31,494 bases of DNA from a candidate division WOR-3 bacterium (lineage in GTDB: Bacteria; Hydrothermota; Tepidihabitantia; Tepidihabitantales; JAOUPE01), in assembly GCA_029880025.1 (NCBI GenBank), contig JAOUPE010000001.1, positions 1-31,494 of the forward strand, read 5' to 3'. Below the pieces are notes generated by a model. It saw only the letters and a program-made list of their open reading frames with translations, had not been told where the DNA came from and searched no databases. Positions 4,899 to 30,963 of this stretch are shown here, piece after piece. Each line of letters starts with the position of its first letter. The first letter of the stretch is position 1. Made by a program: the position numbers and the translations under genes.

Positions 4899-6799
4899 AG
4901 TTTTTATCGAGTTGTGCCATACTATTTTTCGCTTCAGCTTTTGCCTTTTCGGCATTAGCCGAAGACAATTATTTCATTCGGGCGCAGAAAAATTATGACC
5001 ATGGGCTTTATTCGGAAGCGGTCAACTTTTTAGAAAAGGAGTTAGACCAAAACCCAAAAAACATATCGGCTTGGAAATTGCTTGGCAAGTGTTATTTAGA
5101 GATTGACCGGCTTGATGAAGCAATCGCTGCTTATGAACAGGCAAGAAATCTTGACCCGAATAACCAAGAGATTATTAGCTTGCTTGACCAGGCAAATTGG
5201 GTAAAAAGAGAAAAGTTGGAATCGAACATTCAAAAGTATCAAAATTATCTTATCCGTCATCCGGATGACGCCGAGTATCGACTCAAATTAGCCCGCATGT
5301 ATAAAGATTGTGGCGATTACAAGGCAGCGCAAAGAGAATATGAAATTTATCTGGCGAATAACCCATATGAAGACAAAGTGAAAGAAGAATACTATTCAAT
5401 TGCTCCTGAGCAATCTCACAAAAAGTTTAGTAAGCGAGAAACAAGAACGGGTAAGGTGAAAAGTAAAAAATACCACCCCCTGCCTTCCCCCCCTAAAAAA
5501 GATTGGGAGAAAATTTTAGATAAAGCCCGTGACTTAGTCGGTCAAGAAAAATATGTTTCAGCTGAATCGTTATATGAGAACTATTTAAAACAGAAGCCGA
5601 GCGATACGGTTGTTCTAAAGGAATACGCTCAAATGCTTTCTTGGAATAAACAGTATGAAAAATCAATTGCCGTTTATCGAAAGCTTCTTGAACTAAAACC
5701 TAATGATAAAAATTCCGCCTTTGAGCTGGCACAGGTTTTAAGTTGGGCAGGAAAATACGATGAAGCAATTACTCAATATCAGACCCTTGATACCACGAAT
5801 ATCGAGGTTCTTATCGGACTGGCTCAAACCTATTATTGGAAAGGCGACTATAGAAATGCCCGGTTAACTTATCAGAAAATACTTGCCTTAGACCCGAAGA
5901 ACTTAGAAGCGAAGAAAATGGTTTCAGAACTGCAACAAAGAGAAATTCCAGCTCCTGAATTAAGAGCCAAAGTGAGCAATTTTTGGGACAGCGAAGAATT
6001 CTACTATAAAAATTTCGCGGCTGCCTTGAATATTCATTTAAGCGAAAACACCAGTCTGGAACCCGGCTTCTCGGCCAGGCAATTTGAACAACGCGATGAT
6101 GTCATAACCGGTTATTCCTATTCGATTCGCCTCATGGAGAAATTTTCCGAAACCGTTGATGGCGATATTCATTATGCTTATAATTATTATGATTGCGTTC
6201 CCAACACGCAAGCTTATGGGCTTGCCTTGAATTACTATCCTTATTTGCTAACCAACTTTAGTTTCAGTTATGACCATCACGATATCATTTATGATGTCTC
6301 GACTACCCGGTCATTGATTCAGGCGATTACAACCGACAATTTTGAAGTATCGGGCAGCCATCAATTTGAAAAGGGGTATGGGATAATCGGGAGTTATCTT
6401 TATGGCATGTATTCGGATGATAACCGATTACAAAATCCACAAGCGCGATTGTACTACCAACTGTTTAAAATCCTGCGCATCGGCTATGCTTATAATATGA
6501 TTACATATTCTTTTGCTTCGCCCTGGTACTGGTCACCCGATTTTTATCAGACCCATTCGATCTGGTTTGAACTGGCTAATGGTTCAAAATCACCGTTATC
6601 TTATTATGTGAGTGCCGAAATTGCGAAAGTGACCAATTCCTCGAAACTGGCTCGTTCCATCTTTGCCGATTTCGCTTTGAACCCGTCCCAACGATTTAGT
6701 ATCGGCTTCCAATTCTCTTATTCTGAGTTGAGCCGAACCAAAGATGCGCCTGCGTACTGGCAACAATCATTAGCCGCCTATTTGAAACTACAACTTTAA
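4895..6799 (+). CDS. Exported TPR protein with C-terminal predicted outer-membrane beta-barrel (PgaA/BcsC/PelB-like architecture)
   Basis: N-terminal signal peptide ending ALA-ED. Two TPR blocks (AWKLLGKCY...AIAAYEQARNLDP; LAQTYYWKGDY...ILALDPKN). Last ~280 aa have alternating aromatic/polar strands, ending YLKLQL. Confidence 0.75.
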   Translation: MKFLSSCAILFFASAFAFSALAEDNYFIRAQKNYDHGLYSEAVNFLEKELDQNPKNISAWKLLGKCYLEIDRLDEAIAAYEQARNLDPNNQEIISLLDQANWVKREKLESNIQKYQNYLIRHPDDAEYRLKLARMYKDCGDYKAAQREYEIYLANNPYEDKVKEEYYSIAPEQSHKKFSKRETRTGKVKSKKYHPLPSPPKKDWEKILDKARDLVGQEKYVSAESLYENYLKQKPSDTVVLKEYAQMLSWNKQYEKSIAVYRKLLELKPNDKNSAFELAQVLSWAGKYDEAITQYQTLDTTNIEVLIGLAQTYYWKGDYRNARLTYQKILALDPKNLEAKKMVSELQQREIPAPELRAKVSNFWDSEEFYYKNFAAALNIHLSENTSLEPGFSARQFEQRDDVITGYSYSIRLMEKFSETVDGDIHYAYNYYDCVPNTQAYGLALNYYPYLLTNFSFSYDHHDIIYDVSTTRSLIQAITTDNFEVSGSHQFEKGYGIIGSYLYGMYSDDNRLQNPQARLYYQLFKILRIGYAYNMITYSFASPWYWSPDFYQTHSIWFELANGSKSPLSYYVSAEIAKVTNSSKLARSIFADFALNPSQRFSIGFQFSYSELSRTKDAPAYWQQSLAAYLKLQL

Positions 6800-6804
6800 T
6801 CAAA

Positions 6805-8175
6805 ATGGCGGATAATAAAAATACTATGAAAACCGCGGCGCAAAAAGGTTCCCGGTATGGTTTATCGCTTTTCATTCTGGTAATACTTTGTCTGATTTTT
6901 GGATTTATTACCTATTATTTCAACCGCCGGTCGTTTCTGCCATTTGGCTCAACCTTAATCATTGCCCTGACCGTAGTGCTTTTAGCCTTTTTGATTCTAT
7001 TAATAATTCGTTACTTTTTTACATTGTTTTTTGCCTATCTTCATCAAACGAGTGCCGGACCAAGCGAAAAATCCGACTTTTTCCCGTTTGTCTCAATTCT
7101 CGTACCGGTTTATAATGAAGGTAAAGTGATTAAATCGGTGCTCGATTCACTTTTGAATATTGATTATCCTGATTATGAAATCATTGTGATTGATGATGGC
7201 TCAACCGATGATACCTTACAGGAAATTCAAGACTCAAAAGGCAAAAGTCAAAATTCAAAACTAAAGGTGTTTTCGAAAAAAAATGCGGGTAAAGCTTGTG
7301 CGCTTAATTATGGGTTAAAACAGGCTAAGGGTGAATTTATCGCCTGCATTGATGGTGACAGTCTAATCAATCCCGAAGCGTTGCGGCTCGGCTTGCGTCA
7401 TTTTTCTGATCCGAAAGTTGGCGCAGTAGCCGGAAATGTTAAGGCAATCAATCGGCAAAAAATGGTCTCGACCCTTCAGGCGTTAGAATATGTTGAAGGA
7501 TTGAATATGCCGCGTCGTGCCCAGGGGTTATTCGGTTTAGTAAATATTGTGCCCGGACCGATTGGGTTTTTCCGACGCTCGGCACTCGAAGCGGTGGGCG
7601 GTTATTCCAAAGATACCTTTGCCGAAGATTGCGATTTGACCCTGAAAATTTTAAGCATAGGGTGGAAAGTACGTTACGAGCCGGAAGCATTAGCTTGGAC
7701 CGAGGTTCCGGAAACCTGGATTGATTTAGTTAAACAACGCTACCGCTGGACGCGCGGTATCATTCAATCGATTCGTAAACACAAGAGCATTCTTTTTAAC
7801 CCGAGCATAAATTTTGGCGATACGCTAATCTTCTGGCAAATGATATACGAAGCAATCATCTGGCCGGCAATGAATATTTTTGCTCACCTATTCTTTATCA
7901 TCGTTGCTTTAATTTTCGGCTTCTCGCCCTTAATCGTTTTTTGGTGGCTCCAACTTTTAGCTTTAGATATGATGGCAGCGCTTTTCTGCGTTGCCTGTGA
8001 AGAAGAACAGATGAAATTGATTCCTTATGCGATACTCTATCGATTGATTTTCATTCTCATCATTGATATCATCAAAGTGTTTGCCACGATTGAAGAGTTC
8101 TTGAGTTTGGGTATGAGCTGGGATAAGTTAGAACGGAACGGAAGAGTCAACGGCATAATTAAGGAACCAGTATGA
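6805..8175 (+). CDS. Processive GT2 polysaccharide synthase, PgaC/IcaA-like
   Basis: PVYNE, IDDGSTD, GKACALN, DGD, QALEY, AEDCD, QRYRW (QxxRW); N- and C-terminal TM helices; no PilZ domain. Confidence 0.88.
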   Translation: MADNKNTMKTAAQKGSRYGLSLFILVILCLIFGFITYYFNRRSFLPFGSTLIIALTVVLLAFLILLIIRYFFTLFFAYLHQTSAGPSEKSDFFPFVSILVPVYNEGKVIKSVLDSLLNIDYPDYEIIVIDDGSTDDTLQEIQDSKGKSQNSKLKVFSKKNAGKACALNYGLKQAKGEFIACIDGDSLINPEALRLGLRHFSDPKVGAVAGNVKAINRQKMVSTLQALEYVEGLNMPRRAQGLFGLVNIVPGPIGFFRRSALEAVGGYSKDTFAEDCDLTLKILSIGWKVRYEPEALAWTEVPETWIDLVKQRYRWTRGIIQSIRKHKSILFNPSINFGDTLIFWQMIYEAIIWPAMNIFAHLFFIIVALIFGFSPLIVFWWLQLLALDMMAALFCVACEEEQMKLIPYAILYRLIFILIIDIIKVFATIEEFLSLGMSWDKLERNGRVNGIIKEPV

Positions 8176-8480
8176 ATACCGTAATCGCAGTATTATCAAC
8201 CATCATTCTTGCGGTAACAGTCCTTACGCTATTTCTGGGGATTTTTGCCTACATCGTTTATAAAGCACGTAAGCGCAGCAGCCGACGTAAACCCAAGCCA
8301 GAAAAATTTGCCGAAAAACCAAAGCCAGCTGAAATCGTAAAGGAACCAGAACCAATAGTAGAGATAAAACCAGAAGTCCCTCCCCGACCCCCAATATCGG
8401 TTGAACGACCCCAGACCAGCGGATTAATCCGTCGCTATGAACCAGAAAAGAAAAAGGAGAAACGGGTAGAATGGAGATGA
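8172..8480 (+). CDS. Small single-TM protein with basic, Pro/Glu-rich tail
   Basis: ATGA overlaps with both neighbours; one hydrophobic helix followed by KARKRSSRRK. Confidence 0.7.
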   Translation: MNTVIAVLSTIILAVTVLTLFLGIFAYIVYKARKRSSRRKPKPEKFAEKPKPAEIVKEPEPIVEIKPEVPPRPPISVERPQTSGLIRRYEPEKKKEKRVEWR

Positions 8481-10324
8481 GTTATCGTCGAATTAATCTC
8501 CTCACCCTTTTAATATTAGGTCTCGTTATCGTCTTGGTCAGTATTGCGGCTTATTATTTTACGCTTCAAATCGTCCGGGGCGAAATGCGTCTGAAAAATG
8601 TGAAATTGGCAATTCCAACCACCGCACCAGCAAAAAAATCAAGACCAATTACTGCCCGGGTTGTCCTTTTGATTTCGGATTATAGGCAAAAACGATCGGG
8701 AACAAGTAATACTGATAACTTCATTAAAGGTTGGCAAAATTTTTTCGCAAAAGAAAATATATCTTATGATACAATTCGCGACCAAGACCTTGAGCTGAAT
8801 AAAATAAAATACGATATTTTAATTCTTCCCTATAATCCATCCCTTCCCGAACTGGAAATAAATCGAATTAGCGAATTTTTAAATAATGGGGGAGGTATAA
8901 TTGCGTGTGGTGAATGCGGATTTATGGATGAAAAAGGTGAAATCAGGCAGCCAACTTTTCTGAATCGAGTGCTTGGTATCACCAAAATTAACGAAATCGA
9001 CCAATCAATAAAATCCTATGTTCCATTAACCTTAAAGACCAATTCACCATTAACGGTTGATATTGCTTTGGGAGCACAATTAGGTTTGACCACCGAGTAT
9101 GGCTGTGTAAAAGCAAGGATTATCGAAGAAAGAACGGTTCAGGACGGCTACTTCTACGACTCCGAAGTTGACAAAGGAATCGCTCTGGAAGAAATTAAGA
9201 ATAGTACTGGTTTATGCCATGGTTCTTATGGTAAGGGTAGATTTGTCTGGTTAGGTTTTAATGTCTTTTCATTTACCGGCGATGATTTCACCCAGAAGAA
9301 CTATGTAAAATTTTTGCGAAATGTTTTGCTCTGGACCGCAAGCAAACCGCTTGCCAGAATAAAGACCTGGCCCAAGGATTATCACATGGCAGTAGTAATC
9401 TCTGGTGATATTGAACATAAATTCACCAATGTAGAAAATGTGATAGATATTTTACAAGAATATCGAATAAAGGGTTCCTTTTTTATCCTCTCCGATTTAG
9501 CTGAGGTCAATGTCGATATGGTTAGAGCGATGGCAAAAAATGGCGAAATCGGGATTCATGGCGATGAACACACTGTTTTCAAAGGTCAACACTATGATTT
9601 ACAACTGGAACGGTTACAACAAGCAAAGCAAGTCTTGGAAGGAATTTCCGGACAGAAGATAATCGGGTTTCGACCACCTTATGGCAATTATGATGAGAAT
9701 ACGGTGCGTGCTTTAAATGAACTCGGAATAAATTATTTAACTTCAAGCATAACCGGTGGGACCAATATCGACCCGTATTTTATTCCTTATTTTGAAGATT
9801 TTGTTGTCATCCCCAAGACCAACAAAGATGATTACGACCTGTTTTATCGGGATTCGATTACCGATCCCGAGGCAGTGTTAAATGAACTTAAGGACGAGTT
9901 TGACGGATTATACGATTTGGGCGGTTTCTTTTCTCTCAGTTATCATACTCAGATTTTAGCACTTGATACCAACTGTGGGGTCATTTCTGACCTGATTGGC
10001 TATATCAAGCCAAAAAATGTTTGGATTGCGACCTGGCAAGAGATTACCGATTGGTGGCGAAAAAAGCGAAACCTTGAACTTACAGTCCAGGAAAAAGGGA
10101 GTAAACAGTTTATAGTTACGGTAACCAATTCTGGTAAAGATGCGGTTGAAGATTTTAATATCCAAATCTTTCCGCAGATTATTTTTCCGCTAACCCAGAT
10201 TAAATCTGATTTAAAGGAAACCTTAAAAAGGGATTTTGACCCTCAAACCGGTAGCTTTAGTATCCCAATTAAAAAACTCGAACCAAAAGCCAAGCGTCGA
10301 ATTACCATCACCCTGGGTTCTTGA
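8477..10324 (+). CDS. Membrane-anchored multi-domain polysaccharide deacetylase (CE4/NodB)
   Basis: N-terminal TM; flavodoxin-like/GATase-like middle domain (YDILILPY...GGGIIACG); CE4 motifs GDIEH, HGDEH, FRPPYG, SYHT; beta-rich Ig-like C-terminus. Start 8477 chosen from the ATGA overlap (track gives 8471). Confidence 0.8.
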   Translation: MSYRRINLLTLLILGLVIVLVSIAAYYFTLQIVRGEMRLKNVKLAIPTTAPAKKSRPITARVVLLISDYRQKRSGTSNTDNFIKGWQNFFAKENISYDTIRDQDLELNKIKYDILILPYNPSLPELEINRISEFLNNGGGIIACGECGFMDEKGEIRQPTFLNRVLGITKINEIDQSIKSYVPLTLKTNSPLTVDIALGAQLGLTTEYGCVKARIIEERTVQDGYFYDSEVDKGIALEEIKNSTGLCHGSYGKGRFVWLGFNVFSFTGDDFTQKNYVKFLRNVLLWTASKPLARIKTWPKDYHMAVVISGDIEHKFTNVENVIDILQEYRIKGSFFILSDLAEVNVDMVRAMAKNGEIGIHGDEHTVFKGQHYDLQLERLQQAKQVLEGISGQKIIGFRPPYGNYDENTVRALNELGINYLTSSITGGTNIDPYFIPYFEDFVVIPKTNKDDYDLFYRDSITDPEAVLNELKDEFDGLYDLGGFFSLSYHTQILALDTNCGVISDLIGYIKPKNVWIATWQEITDWWRKKRNLELTVQEKGSKQFIVTVTNSGKDAVEDFNIQIFPQIIFPLTQIKSDLKETLKRDFDPQTGSFSIPIKKLEPKAKRRITITLGS

Positions 10325-14700: not shown

Positions 14701-15172
14701 TTTCATAGCTGCCCGATAATAGAAAATAGTTAATTTCACCTTTCAGACAGCCGGATAGGGCGATTAGTCCATTATGTTGTTGGTTCAGCAAATCTTTATC
14801 CACTCGGGGTCGATAATAGAAGCCTTCGAGATAACCGAGCGAGACCAGTTTGATTAGATTCGCATAACCCTCGAGGTCTTTACTGAGCAGAGTAAGATGG
14901 AACGAGGATTCGGGTATTTGCGGATGAATCTTCTTTTCCCGCCGGTCAGTTGGGGCAACATAGACTTCAGCGCCGATGATTGGTTTCACCCCCACATCTT
15001 GTGCGGTCCGATAAAATTCGATTGCGCCAAATAGATTGCCGTGGTCGGTGATTGCTAACGCCGGCATGCGGAATGCCTCGGCTTGTCTCACTAAATCCTT
15101 AATCCGGGCTGACCCGTCCAGTAGACTGTATTCGGTATGGTTGTGCAGATGGATAAAATTTGATTCGCGCAC
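11708..15172 (-). CDS. dnaE: DNA polymerase III alpha subunit
   Basis: PHP domain HLHNHTEYSLLDG, ITDHG, NDCHY; GRGSAVGSL; catalytic PDVDVD and KMDILG; YGFNKSH; OB fold. GTG start. Confidence 0.97.
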   Translation of the reverse strand: MRESNFIHLHNHTEYSLLDGSARIKDLVRQAEAFRMPALAITDHGNLFGAIEFYRTAQDVGVKPIIGAEVYVAPTDRREKKIHPQIPESSFHLTLLSKDLEGYANLIKLVSLGYLEGFYYRPRVDKDLLNQQHNGLIALSGCLKGEINYFLLSGSYEKAREVAGTYQTIFGKENFYLELTQLGLKENDQSIKGLVRLSQELDVRLVATNDCHYLKKEDSLAHDVLLCIQTGKKLSDKVRLRFESQEVYFKSPEEMAQLFAELPEAITNTRAISDKCNLLLDDIGKKFYLPAYPRPDGFISDFEYLKHLAENGLKHRYHRVTPALEERLQYELSVIHKMGFAGYFLVVKDIIDFARSKKIAVGPGRGSAVGSLVLYSLGITDIDPLQYGLLFERFLTPERISLPDVDVDFADNRRDEVINYIRERYGQENVAQIITFGTMQARAAIRDVGRATDIPLPVVDRIAKLIPFGTPLAAALANSSELKTLLNTKPEYQELCEIAQKVEGLARHASIHASGVVIAPRPLMEFVPLYRSADEDICTQYDMTSLDAVGLLKMDILGLRTLTVIEETFELLHRQGVHIDRKTILLDDKKTYQLLQKAETVGVFQLESQGMRDILRQSVPDKIEDIIAVISLYRPGPLGNVGIGEFIKRKRGEAPVSYLHPSLREALEETYGIIVYQEQVMRIAGIIAGFSLSDADRLRRAMAKKVPEAMEAMRESFIEGTKKNRIKPELAQKIFDLIAPFAGYGFNKSHSAGYAYLSYLTAYLKANHPLQFLTAALSCEIGDQDKINKFVKEAKRMGIAILAPDINKSQHQFTIEENKIRFGLGGIKNLGQAVCEKIVEEQQKQGEYKTLFEFLRRTRSFTNRKAYESLIKAGACDSINPDRKFLLSRLDNELAMAGSERLEFAARQTSLFGMVKDASSKESESDRPEADTGPFTQNELLAYELDAYGFHFSLHPLENYRSEYERLATHDSSSLNNLEDYEPVNIGGVITAKKLRRDKKGNEYSVIQIEDFNGSVEVMVFNQLFQQTRQLLRVHECVMVKGTVRTRADGTHQIFADRVQPFNQIQCESKKDLKIKIPATSLEESLLERIKEELENYPGESEVYLELGEDDSRRKLVRLKNHKVNISSALINGLKELLGPDSIRLLAKSPAKRT

Positions 15173-15178
15173 TAACTG

Positions 15179-15207
15179 ATTAAATTAAATTCGGCTCGGT
15201 TTGTCAA
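15179..15207 (-). promoter_or_regulatory. Putative sigma70 promoter of dnaE (leaderless)
   Basis: TTGACA-17 nt-TTTAAT, 6 nt before the GTG. Confidence 0.6.
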
Positions 15208-15235
15208 GCAAAGAATTAAAAATTCGGTAATCCGC

Positions 15236-15264
15236 TTGACAACGATTTAGGATTTTATTAAGCT
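15236..15264 (+). promoter_or_regulatory. Putative sigma70 promoter of the ferritin/IscSU cluster
   Basis: TTGACA-17 nt-TAAGCT, divergent from the dnaE promoter. Confidence 0.55.
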
Positions 15265-15294
15265 TTTTAGAAAAGATTTTATAGATTGGGGTAT

Positions 15295-15780
15295 ATGATG
15301 TTTAAATCATTGAAAGAAGTGATTGCTTTTGCCATCGGTCGAGAGGCACAAGCCGCTAATTTTTACCAGGTCTTTGCGGCACGCTCAGAAAAACCGGCAA
15401 CCAAGTCGATGTTTGCCGAACTGGCAGCAGAGGAAAAGAAACACCAAGAATTACTCGAAAAGCTCACTCCAGAACAATTAAAAAACTTTCAACCAACCAA
15501 GCTTGAAGATTTGGGTCTCGATTCGATTCTTAAGGATACCCAATTCAGCCCAGATATGGAATATCCAGGAGCATTACGAATGGCGCTCAAACGGGAAACA
15601 GAATCAATTCGTCTTTATTCATTCTTTGCCGAGCAGTTGATGAAGGATAAGACCGAATGCCAAACATCGGTTGAGCGAAAGCAACTTAAGCAACTATTCG
15701 ATTTCTTAGTGGCACAGGAACAGCAACATAAGAATAAGCTTGAGAACGAATACGATGCGGTGGTGCTGAAGGATTATTAG
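15295..15780 (+). CDS. Ferritin-like (rubrerythrin-family) diiron protein 1
   Basis: E...EEKKH...E...EQQH pattern. Start ATG 15295 or 15298 (track uses TTG 15286). Confidence 0.85.
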   Translation: MMFKSLKEVIAFAIGREAQAANFYQVFAARSEKPATKSMFAELAAEEKKHQELLEKLTPEQLKNFQPTKLEDLGLDSILKDTQFSPDMEYPGALRMALKRETESIRLYSFFAEQLMKDKTECQTSVERKQLKQLFDFLVAQEQQHKNKLENEYDAVVLKDY

Positions 15781-15805
15781 CTACGTCTCATTTATTTAAG
15801 GAGGG

Positions 15806-16327
15806 ATGATGCAAAAGAGTTTTTCACCGGAAGATGTGATTAAACTCGCGCTACAGATTGAGCAGAGCGGCAAGACAGTCTACCAAACCGCGGCCGAGCA
15901 AGCCCAAACTCCAGAACTTACTGAGCTATTTCAATTTTTAGCCAGAGAAGAGAATGACCACATCAATAGTTTTCAAAAGATTTACGATGATTATAAACTC
16001 AGTGCCAAGACCCCTGGTGTTTCTAAACCCGAAGATATGTCTTATCTCGAAACTCTGGCGCAAAGTCAACTTTTTCAAGGAGCGGATAAAGCAATCAATG
16101 CGGTCAAGCAATTTAACGATCTGCTCCAATTGATAAATTTCGCTTTAGGTTTTGAACGCGATGCGATGCTCTTCTTTGTCAAATTATACCGGATGGTCGG
16201 TGAGAAGTATCGTAACTTAATTTCCAAACTAATCAAGGAAGAAGAGGCACATATCGTGAAATTGACCGAAATTCAATACAAGTTAATAAACCCGAAACCA
16301 GACAAAGAGATTTCAGGAAAGGAGTAA
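15806..16327 (+). CDS. Ferritin-like (rubrerythrin-family) diiron protein 2
   Basis: IEQSG...EENDH...FERDA...EEEAH. Confidence 0.85.
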   Translation: MMQKSFSPEDVIKLALQIEQSGKTVYQTAAEQAQTPELTELFQFLAREENDHINSFQKIYDDYKLSAKTPGVSKPEDMSYLETLAQSQLFQGADKAINAVKQFNDLLQLINFALGFERDAMLFFVKLYRMVGEKYRNLISKLIKEEEAHIVKLTEIQYKLINPKPDKEISGKE

Positions 16328-16329
16328 AT

Positions 16330-16821
16330 GTGGCAGTTTTCTATTCAGCCGTGGAAGTGATTGAAATGGCAATCAAAACCGAAGAAGCCGGTAAGACATT
16401 CTATGGCGGTGTGGCTAAGAATACGGATAACGCAAAATTAAAGGAGCTTTTTGCGTTTCTGGCTGGTGAGGAAGAGAAGCATAAGCAAGTTTTTTCTGAC
16501 CTTTATCAGACGATAAAAGAAAGTCCAGCCTCAGTCCCTTATGATTGGGCGGAGATGAGTCTTTATCTGAAAGCGATTACCGATTCGAAATTCTTCTTAG
16601 GAAAGGATAAGGCAATAAATTTAGTTAAAGAAGCCAAAACACCCGAACAAGCCTTAGATTTTGCTTTAGGTTTTGAACGCGATACCATGCTATTTTATAC
16701 CGAGATTATGACAATCGTTTCCGAAAAGAATCGAGACCTGATTGCGAAAATTGTGGCGCAGGAGAAGAGTCATATCCGTCAACTTCAGGCTTTAAAAGAA
16801 GGTCTGACCAAATCTGGTTAA
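16330..16821 (+). CDS. Ferritin-like (rubrerythrin-family) diiron protein 3
   Basis: TEEAG...EEEKH...FERDT...QEKSH; GTG start with AAGGAG RBS. Confidence 0.85.
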   Translation: MAVFYSAVEVIEMAIKTEEAGKTFYGGVAKNTDNAKLKELFAFLAGEEEKHKQVFSDLYQTIKESPASVPYDWAEMSLYLKAITDSKFFLGKDKAINLVKEAKTPEQALDFALGFERDTMLFYTEIMTIVSEKNRDLIAKIVAQEKSHIRQLQALKEGLTKSG

Positions 16822-16822
16822 A

Positions 16823-17335
16823 ATGGACAACTCAGTCATCAAAGCCTTAGCCACCGCTTTAGAAGCCGAAAAGACCGGTTTAATAAACTATCTTAATTTT
16901 GCTTACCAGATAAAAGATGAAACCGGCAAGAATATGTTCTTGCGCCTGGCAATGGATGAGTTTGACCATATGCGACTTTTGGAACAACAGGAATACAGTA
17001 TCCAGAAAGAAAAATGCTTTTTAGCGGTAACGATTGAACCATCGGCGATTGAAAAATTGGTGCCAAAACTTCAGGATAAAGATTTAAGAATCCGGGGTAA
17101 ACAAGGCATAGACCAACTCAGCGCCTTAAAAACCGCTTTAGAGTTGGAAGACCAGGCAATCAAATTCTATCGCGCACAGGCCCAGACCAGTACTGATTTG
17201 AATGCCAAAGCGATGTTTGAGCGGCTGGTCGATATGGAACAGGCACATTATGAATTATTGCAAGCCGAAATCGATGCGATCGAAAAGACCGGTTTCTGGT
17301 TCAATCTGCGGGAGTTCTCTTTAGAAATAGAATAA
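16823..17335 (+). CDS. Ferritin-like (rubrerythrin-family) diiron protein 4
   Basis: AEKTG...DEFDH...LEDQA...MEQAH. Confidence 0.85.
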   Translation: MDNSVIKALATALEAEKTGLINYLNFAYQIKDETGKNMFLRLAMDEFDHMRLLEQQEYSIQKEKCFLAVTIEPSAIEKLVPKLQDKDLRIRGKQGIDQLSALKTALELEDQAIKFYRAQAQTSTDLNAKAMFERLVDMEQAHYELLQAEIDAIEKTGFWFNLREFSLEIE

Positions 17336-17370
17336 ATAATGATTTAGTTATAGGTAAGGAGGCAAAGATT

Positions 17371-17865
17371 ATGATTGACCCAAAACTAACAAGTTTAGAA
17401 ATCTATGGTATCGCGGTAAAATCCGAAATTGATGCGATAAATGCTTATCAGAAGATAGCAAAAAAAGTAGAAAATCAGGATTTGAATAAGAAATTGCAAT
17501 TTTTAGAGGGAGAGGAGAAAAAACATCGAAAGTTATTAGAGAATCGTTATCGCCTAGAATTCCCGGATACGAAATTGATGCTGCCAAAGGATGGATTAGC
17601 GCCAAAACTCAATATTGCATTAGAGGAGGACACGCCACTTGCCCGGCTCTTTGAATTATCAATGGAGGCGGAAAAAGCATCCGAGGACTTTTATTCAGAA
17701 GCGGCAAAACGTGCCCAAGACCAAACCGGTAAGAATATGCTCTTTTACCTGAGCGGTATGGAACGTGGGCATTATTACTTGTTAAAATCTGAATACGACC
17801 TGATGCAGCAGTTTGATAAGTTTGAGAGTTATAAAAAATTCTCTTTGGAACATTTGGGACCATAA
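17371..17865 (+). CDS. Ferritin-like (rubrerythrin-family) diiron protein 5
   Basis: SEIDA...EEKKH...AEKAS...MERGH; stop overlaps the iscS start by 1 nt. Confidence 0.85.
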   Translation: MIDPKLTSLEIYGIAVKSEIDAINAYQKIAKKVENQDLNKKLQFLEGEEKKHRKLLENRYRLEFPDTKLMLPKDGLAPKLNIALEEDTPLARLFELSMEAEKASEDFYSEAAKRAQDQTGKNMLFYLSGMERGHYYLLKSEYDLMQQFDKFESYKKFSLEHLGP

Positions 17866-19076
17866 TGGCAAAAATCTATTTAGACCACGCCGCAGCCACC
17901 CCGCTCCATCCCGCAGTAAAAAAAGCGATGGAGCCTTATTTGACTGAATTATTTGGTAACCCCCAGAGCTTTCATTCTTTTGGTGCACCAGCAAAACAGG
18001 CAATCGATGATGCCAGAGCCAAAGTTGCCCAGTTGATTGAAGCCAAACCCGAGGAAATTTATTTTACCGCTTCCGGCGCAGAAAGCAATAATCTTGCAAT
18101 AAAAGGGATCGCTTGGGCTTACAAAGATAAAGGTAATCATATTATAACCTCAGCCATCGAACATTACTCGGTTCTCTACCCGGTAAAGACTTTGAGTAAA
18201 ATGGGTTATGAGATGACTACGATTCCGGTCGATAAATTTGGGATGGTCAATCCGGATGATGTGAAAAAGGCAATAAAGAAAGGGACGATTCTTATCTCGA
18301 TTATGCATGCCAACAATGAAATTGGCACGATCGAGCCAATAAAAGAAATCGGTCAGATTGCAAAAGAACATAAAATTCCTTTTCATTCGGATGGGGTAGC
18401 AACGGTTGGTTCAATCCCGGTCAATGTTTCAGAAATTGGAGTTGATGCCTTAAGCCTGGCAGGACATGCTTTCTATGGTCCAAAGGGCTCGGCAGCGCTC
18501 TATTTACGAAAAGGGACAAGAATTATGCCTTTGATTGAAGGCGGAATCCAAGAAGGCGGGAGAAGAGGTGGGACTGAAGATGTTGCCGCGATTGTCGGGT
18601 TGGGCAAAGCCTGTGAACTGGCACAAAAAGAGATACCGAAAAGAATTGAGCACAAACAGCGATTACGCGACCGGATAATTCGCGAATTGCCGACAAAAAT
18701 CGACCGGATTTACCTTACTGGTCATCCGGAAAAGAGACTGCCCGGACATGCCAGTTGCTGTATTGAATTCATTGAAGGCGAGGCAATGCTTCTATTCCTC
18801 GATGACGAAGGCATTGCTGCTGCCTCTGGCTCAGCCTGTACTTCTAAGGCACTCAAGGCTTCCCATGTCCTATTGGCAATCGGTATTGACCATGCTTTAG
18901 CCCAGGGCTCGATTGTCTTTACTTTAGGCAAAGACAATATTGATGCCGATATTGATCTGCTGCTAACGAAACTGCCGCCGATCGTTGAGCGGTTGCGCCA
19001 GATGTCGCCGTTATATGCTAAATTCAAGAAGGGCGAAAAGATTCAGGGAGGAGAAGAATGTATTCCGAAAAAGTGA
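17865..19076 (+). CDS. iscS: IscS/NifS-family protein lacking the PLP Schiff-base lysine
   Basis: YLDHAAATP, GNPQS, SGAESNN, HANNEIG, ASGSAC325TS. Canonical HK(F/I)YGPKG reads H-A202-FYGPKG (codon GCT at 18468-18470). Confidence 0.9.
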   Translation: MAKIYLDHAAATPLHPAVKKAMEPYLTELFGNPQSFHSFGAPAKQAIDDARAKVAQLIEAKPEEIYFTASGAESNNLAIKGIAWAYKDKGNHIITSAIEHYSVLYPVKTLSKMGYEMTTIPVDKFGMVNPDDVKKAIKKGTILISIMHANNEIGTIEPIKEIGQIAKEHKIPFHSDGVATVGSIPVNVSEIGVDALSLAGHAFYGPKGSAALYLRKGTRIMPLIEGGIQEGGRRGGTEDVAAIVGLGKACELAQKEIPKRIEHKQRLRDRIIRELPTKIDRIYLTGHPEKRLPGHASCCIEFIEGEAMLLFLDDEGIAAASGSACTSKALKASHVLLAIGIDHALAQGSIVFTLGKDNIDADIDLLLTKLPPIVERLRQMSPLYAKFKKGEKIQGGEECIPKK

Positions 19077-19453
19077 TGGAGCATTTCCGAAATCCGCGCA
19101 ATGTCGGTGAGATCGAAGATGCCGATGGCATTGGCGAGGTTGGCAATCCGGTTTGTGGTGATATGATGACTTTTTACATTAAGGTTGATAATGACCGGCT
19201 TACCGATGTGAAATTCAAAACTTTTGGCTGCGGTGCGGCAATTGCAGTTTCCAGTATGGTGAGTGAAATGGCAAAAGGGAAAACAATAGAAGAGGCACTC
19301 AAAATTACCAATCAGATGGTGGCACAGGAATTAGGCGGATTACCGTCCAATAAACTCCATTGCTCCAATCTTGGTGCGGACGCACTCCATAAAGCAATAG
19401 AAGATTACATGAATAAGAAAGGGGGACAAGGTGCAAAAGACCAAAAAGCCTAA
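19058..19453 (+). CDS. iscU: Fe-S cluster scaffold IscU/NifU-N
   Basis: YSEKVMEHF, GNPVCGD, FGCGAAIA, KLHCS; three conserved Cys plus Asp and His. Confidence 0.95.
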   Translation: MYSEKVMEHFRNPRNVGEIEDADGIGEVGNPVCGDMMTFYIKVDNDRLTDVKFKTFGCGAAIAVSSMVSEMAKGKTIEEALKITNQMVAQELGGLPSNKLHCSNLGADALHKAIEDYMNKKGGQGAKDQKA

Positions 19454-19604
19454 AAAATGCCGCTGCCCTTTCTGCGATGAACCACTGCTGCCAGAAGCTA
19501 CCTTCTGTCAATTATGCAAGGTCGAATTGATTTTTTGTAAAAAGTGCGGTGAGGCGATCCCTAAGAATGCTGATAAATGTCCAAAATGTGGCACGAAGAG
19601 ATGA
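19431..19604 (+). CDS. 57-aa double zinc-ribbon protein (not in the ORF track)
   Basis: Translated by hand from GTG 19431 (RBS AAGGGGG): MQKTKKPKKCRCPFCDEPLLPEATFCQLCKVELIFCKKCGEAIPKNADKCPKCGTKR; four CxxC pairs. Confidence 0.8.
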   Translation: MQKTKKPKKCRCPFCDEPLLPEATFCQLCKVELIFCKKCGEAIPKNADKCPKCGTKR

Positions 19605-19612
19605 GTAGATTC

Positions 19613-19697
19613 AACCACGAAAAACACGAAAGCCACCAAAGAAAAACAGAGCAAGATTCTTGCCTCTTGCTTCGTAAAGATTTAGTGCTTTCGGGTT
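19613..19697. repeat. Long imperfect intergenic palindrome
   Basis: AACCACGAAA-AACACGAAA... pairs with ...TTTAGTGC-TTTCGGGTT; inner stem AGAGCAAG/CTTGCCTCT. Confidence 0.55.
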
Positions 19698-19709
19698 AAC
19701 TTTGTTCTG

Positions 19710-20186
19710 ATGAAAGATAAAATGACGCTCATCCTTTTCAGTGGTGATTTGGATAAAGCCATTGCCGGCTTCAACCTTGCCACTGCTGCAGCGTCAATGG
19801 GAATAGAAGTTGTCATATTTTTTACCTTCTGGGGTTTGAATATAATCCGTAAAGAAAAGAAGGTGTCTAGAACTAAAGGACTCAAGAAGAAATTATTTGG
19901 TATAATTAATAAAGGCGGTGTTAATAATCTTCCTCTTTCCCGTTTCCACATGTCAGGCATCGGAACTAAGATGATGAAACAATTAATGAAAGAAATGAAA
20001 TTTCCACCGCTAGCCGAATTAATGAAACTTGCCAAGAATCTGGGCGTTAAATTTGTTGCCTGTACAACCACTATGGGCATGATGGGTTTGACTAAAGATG
20101 ATTTGATTCCAGAAGTCGATGCCTATGCCGGTGCCGCCACTTACCTTGCTAACGCCGGCCAATCCAGGATAAATCTTTTTCTATGA
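19710..20186 (+). CDS. DsrE2/DsrE-DsrF-DsrH-like sulfur carrier / peroxiredoxin-like protein
   Basis: LILFSGDLDKA, FFTFWGL, LPLSRFHMSGIG, VACTTTMGMMG, AGAATYL. Confidence 0.85.
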   Translation: MKDKMTLILFSGDLDKAIAGFNLATAAASMGIEVVIFFTFWGLNIIRKEKKVSRTKGLKKKLFGIINKGGVNNLPLSRFHMSGIGTKMMKQLMKEMKFPPLAELMKLAKNLGVKFVACTTTMGMMGLTKDDLIPEVDAYAGAATYLANAGQSRINLFL

Positions 20187-20207
20187 TTATTATTAAATTG
20201 GATAAAT

Positions 20208-20447
20208 ATGATTAAAGCAAATGCCGAATTGGATTGTCTTGGACTTTATTGTCCAATGCCGATTGCCAAAACCGTGGAGAAAATGAAAGAACTCAAGCCA
20301 GGTGAAGTTTTGGAAATCTTAGCCGATGACGAAGGAATTAAAAGTGATATGCCAGCCTGGTGTGAGGCAACTGGTAATGAGTTTTTGGCAATTGAAGATG
20401 AAAATGGTAAATTTCGAATCTATATTAGAAAAAAGGAGGCTAAATGA
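20208..20447 (+). CDS. tusA: TusA/SirA-family sulfur carrier
   Basis: [11 protein letters not shown] (CPxP), [16 protein letters not shown]. Confidence 0.9.
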
Positions 20448-20641
20448 ATAAATGGGAATGCACAGTCTGTGGTTATATTTATAACCCAGAAAAAGGTGAC
20501 CCGGACAATAACATTCAGCCGGGAACGCCGTTTGAAGAACTCCCAAATGATTGGGTATGCCCGGAATGTGGTGCCGGTAAAAGTGAATTTAAGCCATACG
20601 GACGGGGTGAGCCAGAACCACCAAAATCGACCGATGAGTAA
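20444..20641 (+). CDS. Rubredoxin with short C-terminal tail
   Basis: [10 protein letters not shown]...GDP...[18 protein letters not shown]. Confidence 0.95.
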
Positions 20642-20686
20642 GTATAAAAATACGAATTTAGTTTAAAATGAAAGGGGGTGAGAAAT

Positions 20687-20860
20687 ATGGCAAAGAAACT
20701 AGCAAAAAAGAAGATAACCAAAAAAGCCAAGAAAAGAGTTCCTAAGATTAAGGGACTGGTTTATCTTTGCCGAACTTGTGGTATGGAAGTTGTTGTCAGT
20801 AGAGCCGGAGCTGGTATCACCAATCTAGTCTGTTGCGACCAGGTGATGGAAAAGAAATGA
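20687..20860 (+). CDS. Desulforedoxin-like FeS4 peptide with Lys-rich N-terminus
   Basis: YLCRTCG...LVCCDQVM (CxxC...CC); start ATG 20687 after AGGGGGTG. Confidence 0.75.
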   Translation: MAKKLAKKKITKKAKKRVPKIKGLVYLCRTCGMEVVVSRAGAGITNLVCCDQVMEKK

Positions 20861-20867
20861 AGCCGGA

Positions 20868-20927
20868 GATACGCACCGATAAAGCAGAATAGATGAGCGC
20901 CCGATTCGGATGCCAATCTGTATTTAT
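20868..20927. repeat. Imperfect intergenic palindrome
   Basis: ATAAAGCAGA/TCTGTATTTAT and GATACGCACCGA/TCGGATGCCAATC are complementary. Confidence 0.4.
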
Positions 20928-20941
20928 AAAAAGGAGGTGAA

Positions 20942-21232
20942 ATGGCAATTGTCGATATTAGTGTTGTGCCGGTCGGTACCGAAACTACCAGTGTCAGTAA
21001 ATTTGTCCGTGAAGCGGTAGCGGTAATAAAAAAGAGTGGCTTAAAATTCCAGCTCTCCTCGATGGGGACTGCAATCGAAGGTGATTTGGATAAAATCTTT
21101 AAGACCATTCAGGAAATCCACGAGGTTTGCTTTGCTAAGGGAGCAAAACGACTGCTTACCACCATCAAGATTGACGACCGGAAAGATAAAAAACAAACAA
21201 TGGAGGACAAAATTAAAGCGGCTCTGGGTTGA
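20942..21232 (+). CDS. MTH1187/YkoF-family thiamine-binding protein
   Basis: VDISVVPVGT...SVSKFV, MGTAIEGD, IKIDDRKDK; AGGAGG RBS. Confidence 0.88.
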   Translation: MAIVDISVVPVGTETTSVSKFVREAVAVIKKSGLKFQLSSMGTAIEGDLDKIFKTIQEIHEVCFAKGAKRLLTTIKIDDRKDKKQTMEDKIKAALG

Positions 21233-21246
21233 TTAACTCCAGTGCC

Positions 21247-21284
21247 GCTTGGCTTAAAAATATCCTAAAGCAGGTTTAAGCAGC
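21247..21284. terminator. Possible hairpin between convergent genes
   Basis: GCTTGGCTTAAA...TTTAAGCAGC imperfect stem; no clear U-tract. Confidence 0.3.
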
Positions 21285-21315
21285 TTATAACCAACTAAAT
21301 CTAATTTCATCAATT

Positions 21316-21918
21316 TTACTTCTTACCTTCGGTTGGTTGAGTCGGGGCTTTAGATTTAACTGGAAATGCGATTTCGGTCTTGAGTGATTCAGCCGGAACC
21401 TGGTCCGGTGAATTTAGATAGAATTCATGAGCCGGACCGACAATTTCATAATTGTTATTCATAACCCACTCGGCTAATTTCTGATAGGTTGGACCAACTT
21501 TGTCGTACGGTCCAATATAAAGGGTTGCCGCAACCTGAGCTGGTCCAAATTTCTTAACTTTTACCATTTTGTCACCTTTGGTCTTGGCTGGAACTGGAAC
21601 GCATATCTCATATTTTGTGCTTTCTGGCTTCACTTTCATTGGGTCGTCATAATAGACTCCGAACGGCGCACCAGTTGGTTTAACCTTGTTTTTACCAAGC
21701 CAGGTGAATAATTCCATCATCGGTTTGCCCATTTCAGCATAAGGTCCGATTTTACTCATCGATGCTACATACATCGAATCTATGGTTTTTACCGCCGCCG
21801 TGAACTGAGGCTGCTCTGGCGTCGTCGGTTTTTGTACTGGTTGGGTCTTTTGTTCACCGCAACCTACCATCATTAGTGTAATTAGTACAATAACTACACA
21901 GTTATAAATTTTGTCCAT
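21316..21918 (-). CDS. Predicted lipoprotein with GyrI-like small-molecule-binding domain
   Basis: Signal peptide with lipobox MVG-C; GPYAEMG, PFGVYYDDP, YEICVPV, GPYDKVGPTY, EFYLNSP, TEIAFPV. Confidence 0.8.
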   Translation of the reverse strand: MDKIYNCVVIVLITLMMVGCGEQKTQPVQKPTTPEQPQFTAAVKTIDSMYVASMSKIGPYAEMGKPMMELFTWLGKNKVKPTGAPFGVYYDDPMKVKPESTKYEICVPVPAKTKGDKMVKVKKFGPAQVAATLYIGPYDKVGPTYQKLAEWVMNNNYEIVGPAHEFYLNSPDQVPAESLKTEIAFPVKSKAPTQPTEGKK

Positions 21919-29822: not shown

Positions 29823-30602
29823 GTGGATGCACTTGGTTCAAGAATAAAAAAATTAAGAGAGCAGTTAGGCATTAGCCAGCAGGATCTCGCTGATAAGTTT
29901 GGTGTTTCACGACCGACAATTTCTCAAATCGAATCCGGTGCGAGAAAGATTTGTGCGGAAGAGTTAAAGAAGTTAGCCGATATCTTCAATATTTCGGTTG
30001 ATGGTTTATTGAATCTGGAAAAGCCGCCGTTAGTGTTCGTTAGAGATAATAAAGAAACCTATAAGGCAAAGCCTGAGATTCGGATTAACGTGCCGCAAAA
30101 GAATTTAGAAAAATTCAAAGAGGTTTTTCTCTATGTTCTCAATAAAGTGGGTTCTAAGCCCAATATCGGGGAAACGGTCATTTATAAACTGCTCTATTTT
30201 ATTGACTTTGATTATTACGAAAAGTATGAGGAACAGTTAATTGGCGCTACTTATCTCAAAAATCGATATGGTCCGACACCAATCGAATTCGCAAAGATAG
30301 TCGAAAACCTGATTAAAGCAAAAGAGATTATAAAAGTCAAAGACAAGTATTTCACTTATCCTCAGACCAAGTATTTACCATTACGGAACCCAGACCTCAC
30401 CAAGTTAAAGGCAAGTGAAATTGCAATTATTGATAATGTTCTAAACCGCCTATCGGATAAGAATGCTAAAGAGGTAAGCGATTATTCGCACAATGATGTT
30501 CCGTGGCTTACGACTCAAGAGGGTAAAACAATTGAGTATGAATCGGTTTTCTATCGAACTACTCCTTATTCGGTAAGAGAATACAATGAACATATTCTAT
30601 GA
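29823..30602 (+). CDS. XRE-HTH + Panacea (DUF4065/SocA-like) antitoxin
   Basis: N-terminal HTH (ISQQDLADKFGVSRPTISQIESG); Panacea-type KLLYFID...YGP motifs and SHNDVPW. Confidence 0.8.
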   Translation: MDALGSRIKKLREQLGISQQDLADKFGVSRPTISQIESGARKICAEELKKLADIFNISVDGLLNLEKPPLVFVRDNKETYKAKPEIRINVPQKNLEKFKEVFLYVLNKVGSKPNIGETVIYKLLYFIDFDYYEKYEEQLIGATYLKNRYGPTPIEFAKIVENLIKAKEIIKVKDKYFTYPQTKYLPLRNPDLTKLKASEIAIIDNVLNRLSDKNAKEVSDYSHNDVPWLTTQEGKTIEYESVFYRTTPYSVREYNEHIL

Positions 30603-30963
30603 AATCAAAAGAATCCCTGAATTTGAAAAAGATTTAAAAAAATTACTTAAACGCTTCCGAACTCTCGAGGATGACCTTAAAATTTTCATTAATAAAGAAT
30701 TATATCTTTATCATAAACTCAAAATTGACAACAAGGGAGTCTTTCCACTTACTGATTTACCAAGCAAAATTCCTAAAGTCTACAAGGCAAAGAAATTCAC
30801 CTGTCGCTCTTTGAAGGGCAAGGGTGTTTTTTCGGGCATCCGGGTAATCTGCGCTTATTTCCCAGAATCAGATAAAATTGAATTAATCGAGATTTATTAT
30901 AAGGGCGATAAGGCAAACGAAGACCGAGCAAGAATAAAGAACTATTTAGATACTTATATTTAA
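30586..30963 (+). CDS. RelE/HigB-like toxin
   Basis: FEKDLKKLLKRF, KFTCRSLKGKG..SGIRVI, ELIEIYYKGDK; 17-nt overlap with the antitoxin gene. Confidence 0.65.
   Translation: MNIFYEIKRIPEFEKDLKKLLKRFRTLEDDLKIFINKELYLYHKLKIDNKGVFPLTDLPSKIPKVYKAKKFTCRSLKGKGVFSGIRVICAYFPESDKIELIEIYYKGDKANEDRARIKNYLDTYI

Follow-up and report, generated by a model that had tools for sequence, protein, structure and literature searches.

A Lys-less IscS homologue encoded with IscU, TusA and a DsrE2-like protein in a candidate division WOR-3 bacterium

The closest described system to the one reported here is the IscS-IscU pair of Archaeoglobus fulgidus. In this archaeal IscS, Asp199 takes the place of the lysine that forms the Schiff base with pyridoxal 5'-phosphate (PLP), the protein has no desulfurase activity, and its cysteine ligates the [2Fe-2S] cluster on IscU in the IscS-IscU complex (PMC8918507, PMC7585200). 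It binds pyridoxamine 5'-phosphate (PMP), and the D199K variant is also inactive. The sulfur source of the pair is an acknowledged open question, for which sulfide has been proposed (PMC8918507, PMC7585200). So far the inactive IscS has been represented by this one crystallised archaeal protein, and reviews leave its sulfur source open (PMC8918507). Here we describe a bacterial IscS homologue of this kind, encoded next to IscU on a stretch of 31,494 nucleotides (hereafter the window) from a candidate division WOR-3 bacterium (NCBI GenBank assembly GCA_029880025.1, contig JAOUPE010000001.1, positions 1 to 31,494). A preliminary description of the window had pointed to the missing lysine and drawn the parallel with A. 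fulgidus, and its account of the archaeal protein (Asp199, no desulfurase activity, cysteine as cluster ligand) agrees with the literature.

On balance we favour the view that the window protein is a catalytically dead descendant of an IscS/NifS-type enzyme, which acts as the docking partner of IscU in a minimal (MIS-type) pair and is fed sulfur from outside its own pocket. That an inactive IscS paralogue can accompany IscU was already known (PMC8918507, PMC7585200). New in our analysis are the census across the order, the finding that TusA and DsrE2 are dispensable, the co-occurring live paralogue, and the archaeoferritin-like genes upstream and rubredoxin and desulforedoxin genes downstream.

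Catalytic residues of the IscS homologue and its relatives

The gene and the codon at the centre of this work are:

17865..19076, forward strand: IscS homologue with the IscS/NifS-type class V fold, 403 aa, without equivalents of the Schiff-base Lys, Gln183, Ser203 and Arg354, loop Cys325 kept
18468..18470, forward strand: codon GCT, encoding Ala202 at the position of the PLP Schiff-base Lys (E. coli Lys206)

The protein has the class V aminotransferase fold (PF00266 Aminotran_5, 245.6 bits against a cut-off of 21.5). The nearest kind of enzyme is the NifS/IscS-type cysteine desulfurase, with both NCBIfam equivalog cut-offs missed (NifS TIGR03402, 507.6 against 530.75; IscS TIGR02006, 395.8 against 643.2). 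The best solved match is PDB 9wep (E 1.9e-129), and the A. fulgidus structure 4eb5 is matched with E 6.6e-113. The entries 9wep, 9wfe, 9wer, 9wew, 9wfy, 9wf8 and 9wfb, the best solved matches, form a variant series of one 406-aa cysteine desulfurase; the variants differ at positions that include the equivalents of Thr76, Gln183, Ser203 and Arg354, the same positions that set apart the Lys-less clade described below.

Based on a MAFFT alignment with E. coli IscS (from NC_000913.3), five residues are replaced in the window protein: Thr76, Gln183, Ser203 and Lys206 by alanine, and Arg354 by valine. The residues found at Gln183, Ser203 and Arg354 are Ala179, Ala199 and Val351, respectively. Retained are the equivalents of His104, Asn155, Asp180, His205, Lys211, Thr243 and Cys328. 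The motif around the lost lysine reads G-H-A202-F-Y-G-P-K-G, and in a HMMER alignment the alanine stands opposite the lysine of the 9wep motif AHKMYGPKG, so that the alignments to 9wep and to E. coli IscS both confirm the absence of the PLP lysine reported in the preliminary description. The translation likewise bears out that HxDAVQ has become HSDGVA (residues 174-179) and that the persulfide cysteine is kept, as Cys325 at the end of SGSAC.

The loss is specific, as first proposed: TrpB2 encoded in the window has its lysine (PTGSHKVN), and so does the class I aminotransferase (DGFSKTYAMTGWR). Going from a lysine codon (AAA or AAG) to GCT takes three base changes, beyond the single change that a simple miscall would involve. 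In Logan contigs of four runs, each from a different study, no difference at 18468-18470 is found among the differences listed, although in two of these runs the strains show 13-33 further differences from the window. A sequencing or assembly error can therefore be ruled out, given the identical codon in four independent assemblies and the absence of the lysine from all 120 nearest homologues.

In these 120 nearest protein clusters, the position of Lys206 is occupied by Gln (94), Ser (10), Ala (7), Thr (5), Met (3) or Glu (1), and never by Lys. Position 183 is Ala in 119 clusters and position 203 is Ala in 117; position 354 is Leu, Val, Met or Ile in all 120, Leu or Val in 118. Cys328 is present in 120/120. 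Among 134 full-length representatives of 50%-identity clusters, Lys is found in 116 and Arg in 118. The columns that best separate Lys-less from Lys-bearing proteins are E. coli 106, 183, 206, 334 and 354; at position 334, just past the Cys loop, Glu or Asp of the Lys-bearing proteins is replaced by Lys in the Lys-less ones. The nearest named clusters, at 84% identity, are from candidate division WOR-3, and Lys-less proteins are 55-69% identical across phyla. One strain variant differs from the window within the gene by 16 synonymous and 8 non-synonymous changes. As judged from these sequences, purifying selection on the gene is evident.

The Lys-less, Arg-less sequences appear to form essentially one clade spread over several phyla. 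In a tree of 215 rows, 67 of the 71 such rows fall inside one clade of 68, and the loss of Arg354 needs 2 changes compared to 5 for Lys206. Four rows of the Asp/Ser/Ala type, a Methanophagales copy included, lie outside this core clade; the A. fulgidus sequence itself is not among the rows of the tree. A single clade of all 35 Lys-less, Arg-less rows sampled in an 81-row IQ-TREE analysis is not rejected by the approximately unbiased (AU) test (p 0.30). The lysine was lost separately and sporadically in three other rows, which still have Arg354. Lys-less members come from Chloroflexota, Nitrospirota, Planctomycetota, Thermodesulfobacteriota, Myxococcota and Aminicenantes, besides one Methanophagales archaeon. 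The dead form thus looks like a large and old subfamily under purifying selection that is also widespread in anaerobic bacteria.

The joint loss of the aldimine lysine, the O3'/phosphate contacts and the carboxylate arginine around an invariant loop cysteine is what one would expect of a pseudo-enzyme that has been retained for IscU docking and for its cysteine. Since such a pocket should neither form an internal aldimine nor hold the cysteine carboxylate, the protein would be unable to make its own persulfide. Could it still carry out PLP or PMP chemistry without the Schiff-base lysine, either a slow desulfuration with a non-covalently held cofactor or a different reaction? The conservation of His104, Asp180, Thr243 and Glu77-type positions speaks for this, as does the non-covalent binding of PMP or PLP by A. 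fulgidus IscS (PMC8918507). Yet Arg354, Gln183 and Ser203 are gone along with the lysine throughout the clade, and the A. fulgidus protein is inactive and is not rescued by restoring the lysine (PMC8918507). The lysine of GPKG was considered as a substitute for the aldimine residue and can be ruled out, since Lys-bearing, active homologues conserve it to the same degree (122/134 representatives). We find residual chemistry hardly credible, the least so of the alternatives considered here.

A row of iron, sulfur and redox genes around the pair

The Lys-less gene belongs to a row of 12-13 same-strand genes (15286-21232), which is flanked by dnaE and a GyrI-like gene on the opposite strand. Besides the IscS homologue, the row contains:

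15286..15780, forward strand: archaeoferritin-like (rubredoxin-less rubrerythrin-type) diiron protein, paralogue 1; Pfam Rubrerythrin 49.6 bits, TTG start uncertain
15806..16327, forward strand: archaeoferritin-like diiron protein, paralogue 2; Pfam Rubrerythrin 47.5 bits
16330..16821, forward strand: archaeoferritin-like diiron protein, paralogue 3; Pfam Rubrerythrin 47 bits, orthologues upstream of the Lys-less gene in relatives
16823..17335, forward strand: archaeoferritin-like diiron protein, paralogue 4; Pfam Rubrerythrin 44.1 bits, conserved upstream of the Lys-less gene in relatives
17371..17865, forward strand: archaeoferritin-like diiron protein, paralogue 5; Pfam Rubrerythrin 54.8 bits
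19058..19453, forward strand: IscU scaffold; NifU_N 171.6 bits, NCBIfam NifU_clost 208.6 above its cut-off of 187.9, 19-nt overlap with the IscS homologue
19710..20186, forward strand: DsrE2-like sulfur carrier (DrsE_2 family); PF13686 177 bits, Cys118
20208..20447, forward strand: TusA; PF01206 92.9 bits, CPxP cysteine Cys15
20444..20641, forward strand: rubredoxin; Pfam Rubredoxin 88.5 bits, start overlapping the TusA stop by 4 nt
20678..20860, forward strand: desulforedoxin-like small protein (CxxC...CC); Desulfoferrod_N 30.8 bits, cut-off 23
20942..21232, forward strand: MTH1187/YkoF-type 'thiamine-binding' protein; Thiamine_BP 124.1 bits, last gene on the strand, membership of the unit uncertain

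The IscU partner has all of its ligands (Tyr3, Cys37, Asp39, Cys63, His105 and Cys106 in E. coli numbering), as had been claimed for it, while the HscA-binding motif LPPVK is degenerate and reads LPSNK. Profile searches found no ISC (iron-sulfur cluster) accessory genes in the window. Upstream, the five archaeoferritin-like genes are translationally coupled, and the stop codon of paralogue 5 shares one base with the start of the Lys-less gene (TAATG). In an alignment of the five copies the E, ExxH and ExxH diiron ligands are invariant at 23-28% identity to the first copy; the best solved relative of paralogue 5 is 2fzf (P. furiosus PF1190, E 1.7e-24). Three of the five genes also precede the Lys-less gene, as a conserved feature, in three families of the order.

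Downstream, Cys15 of TusA is invariant in 47/47 sequences and Cys118 of the DsrE2-like protein in 14/14 neighbours of Lys-less genes. Both proteins fall below their NCBIfam equivalog cut-offs (55.2 against 78 for E. coli-type TusA, 84.4 against 210 for DsrE2); accordingly, neither is an orthologue of the characterised proteins. The rubredoxin gene occupies the same position in a relative of the same family (L093). The row has a single long spacer, the 256 bp at 19454-19709 that separate IscU from the DsrE2-like gene. A promoter and terminator scan of 15100-21400 returned sites no commoner than in shuffled sequences, and an Rfam scan of the window, this spacer included, gave no match.

We then compared 83 IscS-type genes from 80 loci in species-representative genomes (55 Lys-less, 28 canonical) for genes lying within 2.5 kb:

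IscU: Lys-less 48/55, canonical 15/28
TusA: Lys-less 48/55, canonical 1/28
DsrE2-like: Lys-less 18/55, canonical 1/28
Erythrin-like: Lys-less 11/55, canonical 1/28
Rubredoxin: Lys-less 6/55, canonical 0/28

The association of TusA with Lys-less genes has a Fisher p of 3e-14, a value that overstates it because independent origins are few. The sole canonical gene with TusA and DsrE2 nearby stands back to back with a Lys-less operon. The genes at Lys-less loci come in at least five orders (T-S-U, S-U-E-T, S-U-T, S-U-T-E and T-E-S-U, with S for the Lys-less IscS, U for IscU, T for TusA and E for DsrE2). The variable order of the genes argues for a linkage that is maintained and not merely inherited. 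Together with the tree, this result bears on the question raised in the preliminary description, whether Lys-less homologues form a clade with a common neighbourhood. We found no paper that joins TusA, DsrE2, IscU and IscS, or that describes a bacterial clade with a TusA/DsrE tie.

In two Chloroflexota loci (L013:3400-8481 and L015:1003-6519), a canonical Lys-bearing IscS lies directly upstream of a Lys-less IscS-IscU-TusA-DsrE2 set. The live copy in the first of these has its own IscU after it, so that live and dead IscS stand side by side.

These neighbourhoods bear on two other views of the row. The unit could be a sulfur-trafficking hub for thio-cofactors or tRNA thiolation, in which TusA and a DsrE/TusD-like protein work as in the Tus relay of E. 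coli and the adjacency of IscU is secondary. One family of the order indeed has the Lys-less IscS, DsrE2 and TusA together with IscU on another contig, and in E. coli sulfur goes from IscS to TusA (PMC2854127). A dead desulfurase, however, cannot start a relay, IscU adjoins 48 of the 55 Lys-less loci, and most relatives that keep the Lys-less gene have neither TusA nor DsrE2. We regard such a hub as very improbable.

Alternatively, the row could be an oxygen-stress and Fe-S repair island and not a housekeeping line: the task of erythrins, rubredoxin and desulforedoxin would be to detoxify peroxide or oxygen, that of the Lys-less IscS with IscU to rebuild damaged clusters. Rubrerythrin-type proteins and rubredoxin are classic peroxide defences of anaerobes, and erythrin-like genes are more frequent at Lys-less loci, as listed above. 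On the other hand, among characterised proteins the nearest relative of the upstream genes is one that stores iron (PMC3401498). IscU is single-copy and the SUF system is nearly absent from the order (see below), so that IscU must also serve housekeeping. A stress role is moreover compatible with the docking-partner reading and does not exclude it. As an explanation in its own right, we give the island an even slimmer chance than the hub.

Elsewhere in the window, a same-strand set at 3525-10324 (KaiC-like ATPase, tetratricopeptide repeat protein, family 2 glycosyltransferase and polysaccharide deacetylase) looks like an exopolysaccharide synthesis unit. A gene for an HTH-Panacea protein (SocA-like antitoxin domain) followed by a 125-aa open reading frame (ORF), at 29823-30963, is a possible toxin-antitoxin pair.

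Sulfur supply to the pair within the order

The window genome is a metagenome-assembled genome, 82% complete and in 439 contigs. To this we added a census of 25 relatives of the same order, 23 of them of high quality, among which we found:

Lys-less IscS: 21/23, signature checked in all 21 loci
Second paralogue, 44-49% identical to the Lys-less IscS: 21/23
IscU: exactly one in 23/23
SUFBD: 2/23
TusA: 6/23
DsrE2: 5/23

No HSCB_C match above cut-off, indicative of HscB, was found in the 26 genomes searched. With one IscU per relative, SUFBD in 2 and no HscB match, the IscU system is the main one among the scaffold systems found in the order. All six DsrE2 genes (that of the window included) and five of the seven TusA genes adjoin the Lys-less gene. 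The sulfur carriers are thus dedicated to the Lys-less pair but dispensable.

Eight copies of the second paralogue were fetched. All keep Lys206, Ser203, His205 and Arg354, and they stand alone in unrelated neighbourhoods without an IscU of their own. This raises the alternative that the Lys-less protein is only a structural or ligand partner, and that cysteine sulfur is delivered by the stand-alone Lys-bearing paralogue, either directly to IscU or within a mixed dimer, with TusA and DsrE2 as an optional branch. In addition to the distribution of the paralogue and the single IscU per genome, the absence of TusA from 17 of the 23 relatives favours this view; the Lys-less protein also keeps Thr243, which in IscS reaches the PLP site of the partner subunit. 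Nonetheless, the Lys-bearing paralogue was not found in the 82%-complete window genome or in two relatives (96% and 94% complete), and the only class V enzymes of these two relatives are without a desulfurase-type loop cysteine. A. fulgidus IscS2 crystallises with IscU as a homodimer (PMC8918507). Supply by the paralogue also leaves unexplained why IscU is encoded with the dead and not the live copy. We judge it unlikely as the whole explanation, though a cysteine-derived supply through the live paralogue is possible in most members.

Two further proteins of the window genome were considered. A class V enzyme on contig C258 (2092-2892; orthologues in L133, L130 and L134) was tried as a hidden desulfurase and rejected: its full-length orthologues keep Lys and Arg and have no conserved loop cysteine, which is why the protein is probably not a persulfide-forming desulfurase. 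It belongs to a class V PLP family of about 376 aa that occurs in relatives without the live IscS paralogue. On contig C363 (4260-4679), a second, distant IscU-like protein (NifU_N 91.5 bits; CGD, GC and HC motifs) lies next to genes for an Mrp/NBP35-type ATPase, a MinD-like 4Fe-4S protein and a radical SAM protein, and to a short ORF resembling ferritin. Each relative searched yielded a single NifU_N match.

Under the docking-partner reading, selection would keep the fold of the Lys-less IscS, its dimer, its contact with IscU and the mobile-loop Cys325. This cysteine may take up external sulfane sulfur and pass it to IscU, may ligate the nascent [2Fe-2S] cluster, or may do both, as in Archaeoglobus IscS2-IscU. 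Given the linkage and the intact cysteines, the most likely outside source of sulfur is the pair of proteins whose genes follow immediately downstream, the DsrE2-like protein and TusA, and a likely persulfide relay in the window genome would run from DsrE2 Cys118 to TusA Cys15 to Cys325. The source ahead of the relay could be sulfide or polysulfide, or the Lys-bearing paralogue that stands alone in relatives. Rubredoxin, desulforedoxin and the five archaeoferritin-like proteins would probably buffer or supply iron and electrons, or shield the system from oxygen.

The interpretation given in the preliminary description is supported on sequence and comparative grounds. For a non-desulfurase IscU partner, Gln183, Ser203 and Arg354 are lost too across the clade and the loop cysteine is invariant. 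Sulfur from another source needs qualifying: the source need not be cysteine-independent, as the Lys-bearing paralogue occurs in 21/23 relatives, and TusA and DsrE2 occur in only 6 and 5 of these 23.

Several observations weigh against the docking-partner reading. The equivalents of His104, Asp180 and Thr243 remain conserved in Lys-less proteins, and the pocket may still accommodate a cofactor, given that PMP is bound by the Archaeoglobus protein. Predicted docking of TusA on the dimer of the window protein gave a median ipSAE of 0.20 against a mark of 0.34, in a comparison made without control runs, and speaks neither for nor against a contact. With TusA in 6 and DsrE2 in 5 of 23 relatives, the relay is no general requirement of the Lys-less pair, and the few independent origins temper the statistical link to TusA. 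Most relatives also carry the Lys-bearing paralogue, which could feed cysteine sulfur directly to IscU. We infer the inactivity of the bacterial members from their residues, the studied example being A. fulgidus IscS only. Finally, protection from oxidative stress could be the whole role of the erythrin and rubredoxin genes.

A bolder version of the docking-partner reading takes the whole row at 15286-21232 as a complete, desulfurase-free Fe-S assembly line, and as the main one in the order. Archaeoferritin-like proteins would provide iron, DsrE2 and TusA would bring sulfane sulfur to Cys325, rubredoxin and desulforedoxin would supply electrons in the place of ferredoxin, and IscU would build the cluster. 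We put this forward tentatively and hold it to be rather unlikely in full; if true, it would give a concrete answer to the sulfur source of Lys-less IscS-IscU pairs (PMC8918507).

In an order where SUF is almost never found, the sole IscU is encoded together with the presumably dead IscS and not with the live paralogue, and genomes that have the sulfur carriers encode them almost exclusively next to this dead copy. The linkage to TusA and DsrE points to an alternative sulfur supply for iron-sulfur cluster assembly, and genes of the iron-storage type and for FeCys4 electron carriers can be coupled to the Lys-less gene. The locus therefore offers a small set of soluble proteins for reconstituting cysteine-independent Fe-S assembly. 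It also suggests that anaerobes have less desulfurase capacity than the 'cysteine desulfurase' annotations of their genomes imply.

Comparison with known systems

The upstream proteins resemble P. furiosus archaeoferritin (PF1196) and PF1190 (2FZF). These are rubredoxin-less, rubrerythrin-like four-helix proteins, some 165-175 aa long, whose diiron site has the ligand set E/ExxH/E/ExxH. PF1190 is a paralogue of archaeoferritin, which oxidises Fe(II) and is an Fe(III) store (PMC3401498). Unlike P. furiosus, the window has five diverged tandem copies, putative iron-storage proteins whose genes are translationally coupled to an Fe-S assembly gene.

The E. coli IscS-TusA complex (3LVJ; PMC2854127) involves the same two protein families, and the CPxP cysteine of TusA is kept in the window. 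Because the Lys-less protein should be unable to make a persulfide, any transfer between it and TusA would have to run opposite to the IscS-to-TusA direction of E. coli. The interface residues of the E. coli complex (PMC2854127) are conserved in neither subfamily and are therefore silent either way on a TusA contact; the subfamilies differ at 45, 237 and 334. Turning to the window TusA itself, we take Asp41 and Asp47, placed by eye against the E. coli sequence, to be the conserved Asp residues near the CPxP cysteine.

With the MIS system (PMC13066941), the window shares a two-gene pair of IscS-like and IscU-like proteins without HscAB, IscA or Fdx. MisS is described as a cysteine desulfurase, whereas the subfamily described here has lost the desulfurase pocket. 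The isc1 pair of Methanosarcina acetivorans (IscS1 MA0808, IscU1 MA0807) is archaeal, its IscU1 is longer (24 kDa), and the paper describing it mentions four unnamed genes neighbouring isc1.

The closest likeness is to A. fulgidus IscS2-IscU (4EB5, 4EB7, 4HVK; D199K 4R5F): in both, the lysine is replaced, the loop cysteine is kept and an intact IscU stands alongside. The archaeal Asp-type sequences lie outside the core clade of 68 rows, and a single clade with them is not rejected (AU p 0.30). Unlike A. fulgidus IscS2, the window protein is from a bacterium, a WOR-3-like sediment organism, and has Ala instead of Asp. The likeness is drawn from the proteins; in the window, the gene for the Lys-less IscS has those for TusA, DsrE2, rubredoxin and five archaeoferritin-like proteins joined to it.

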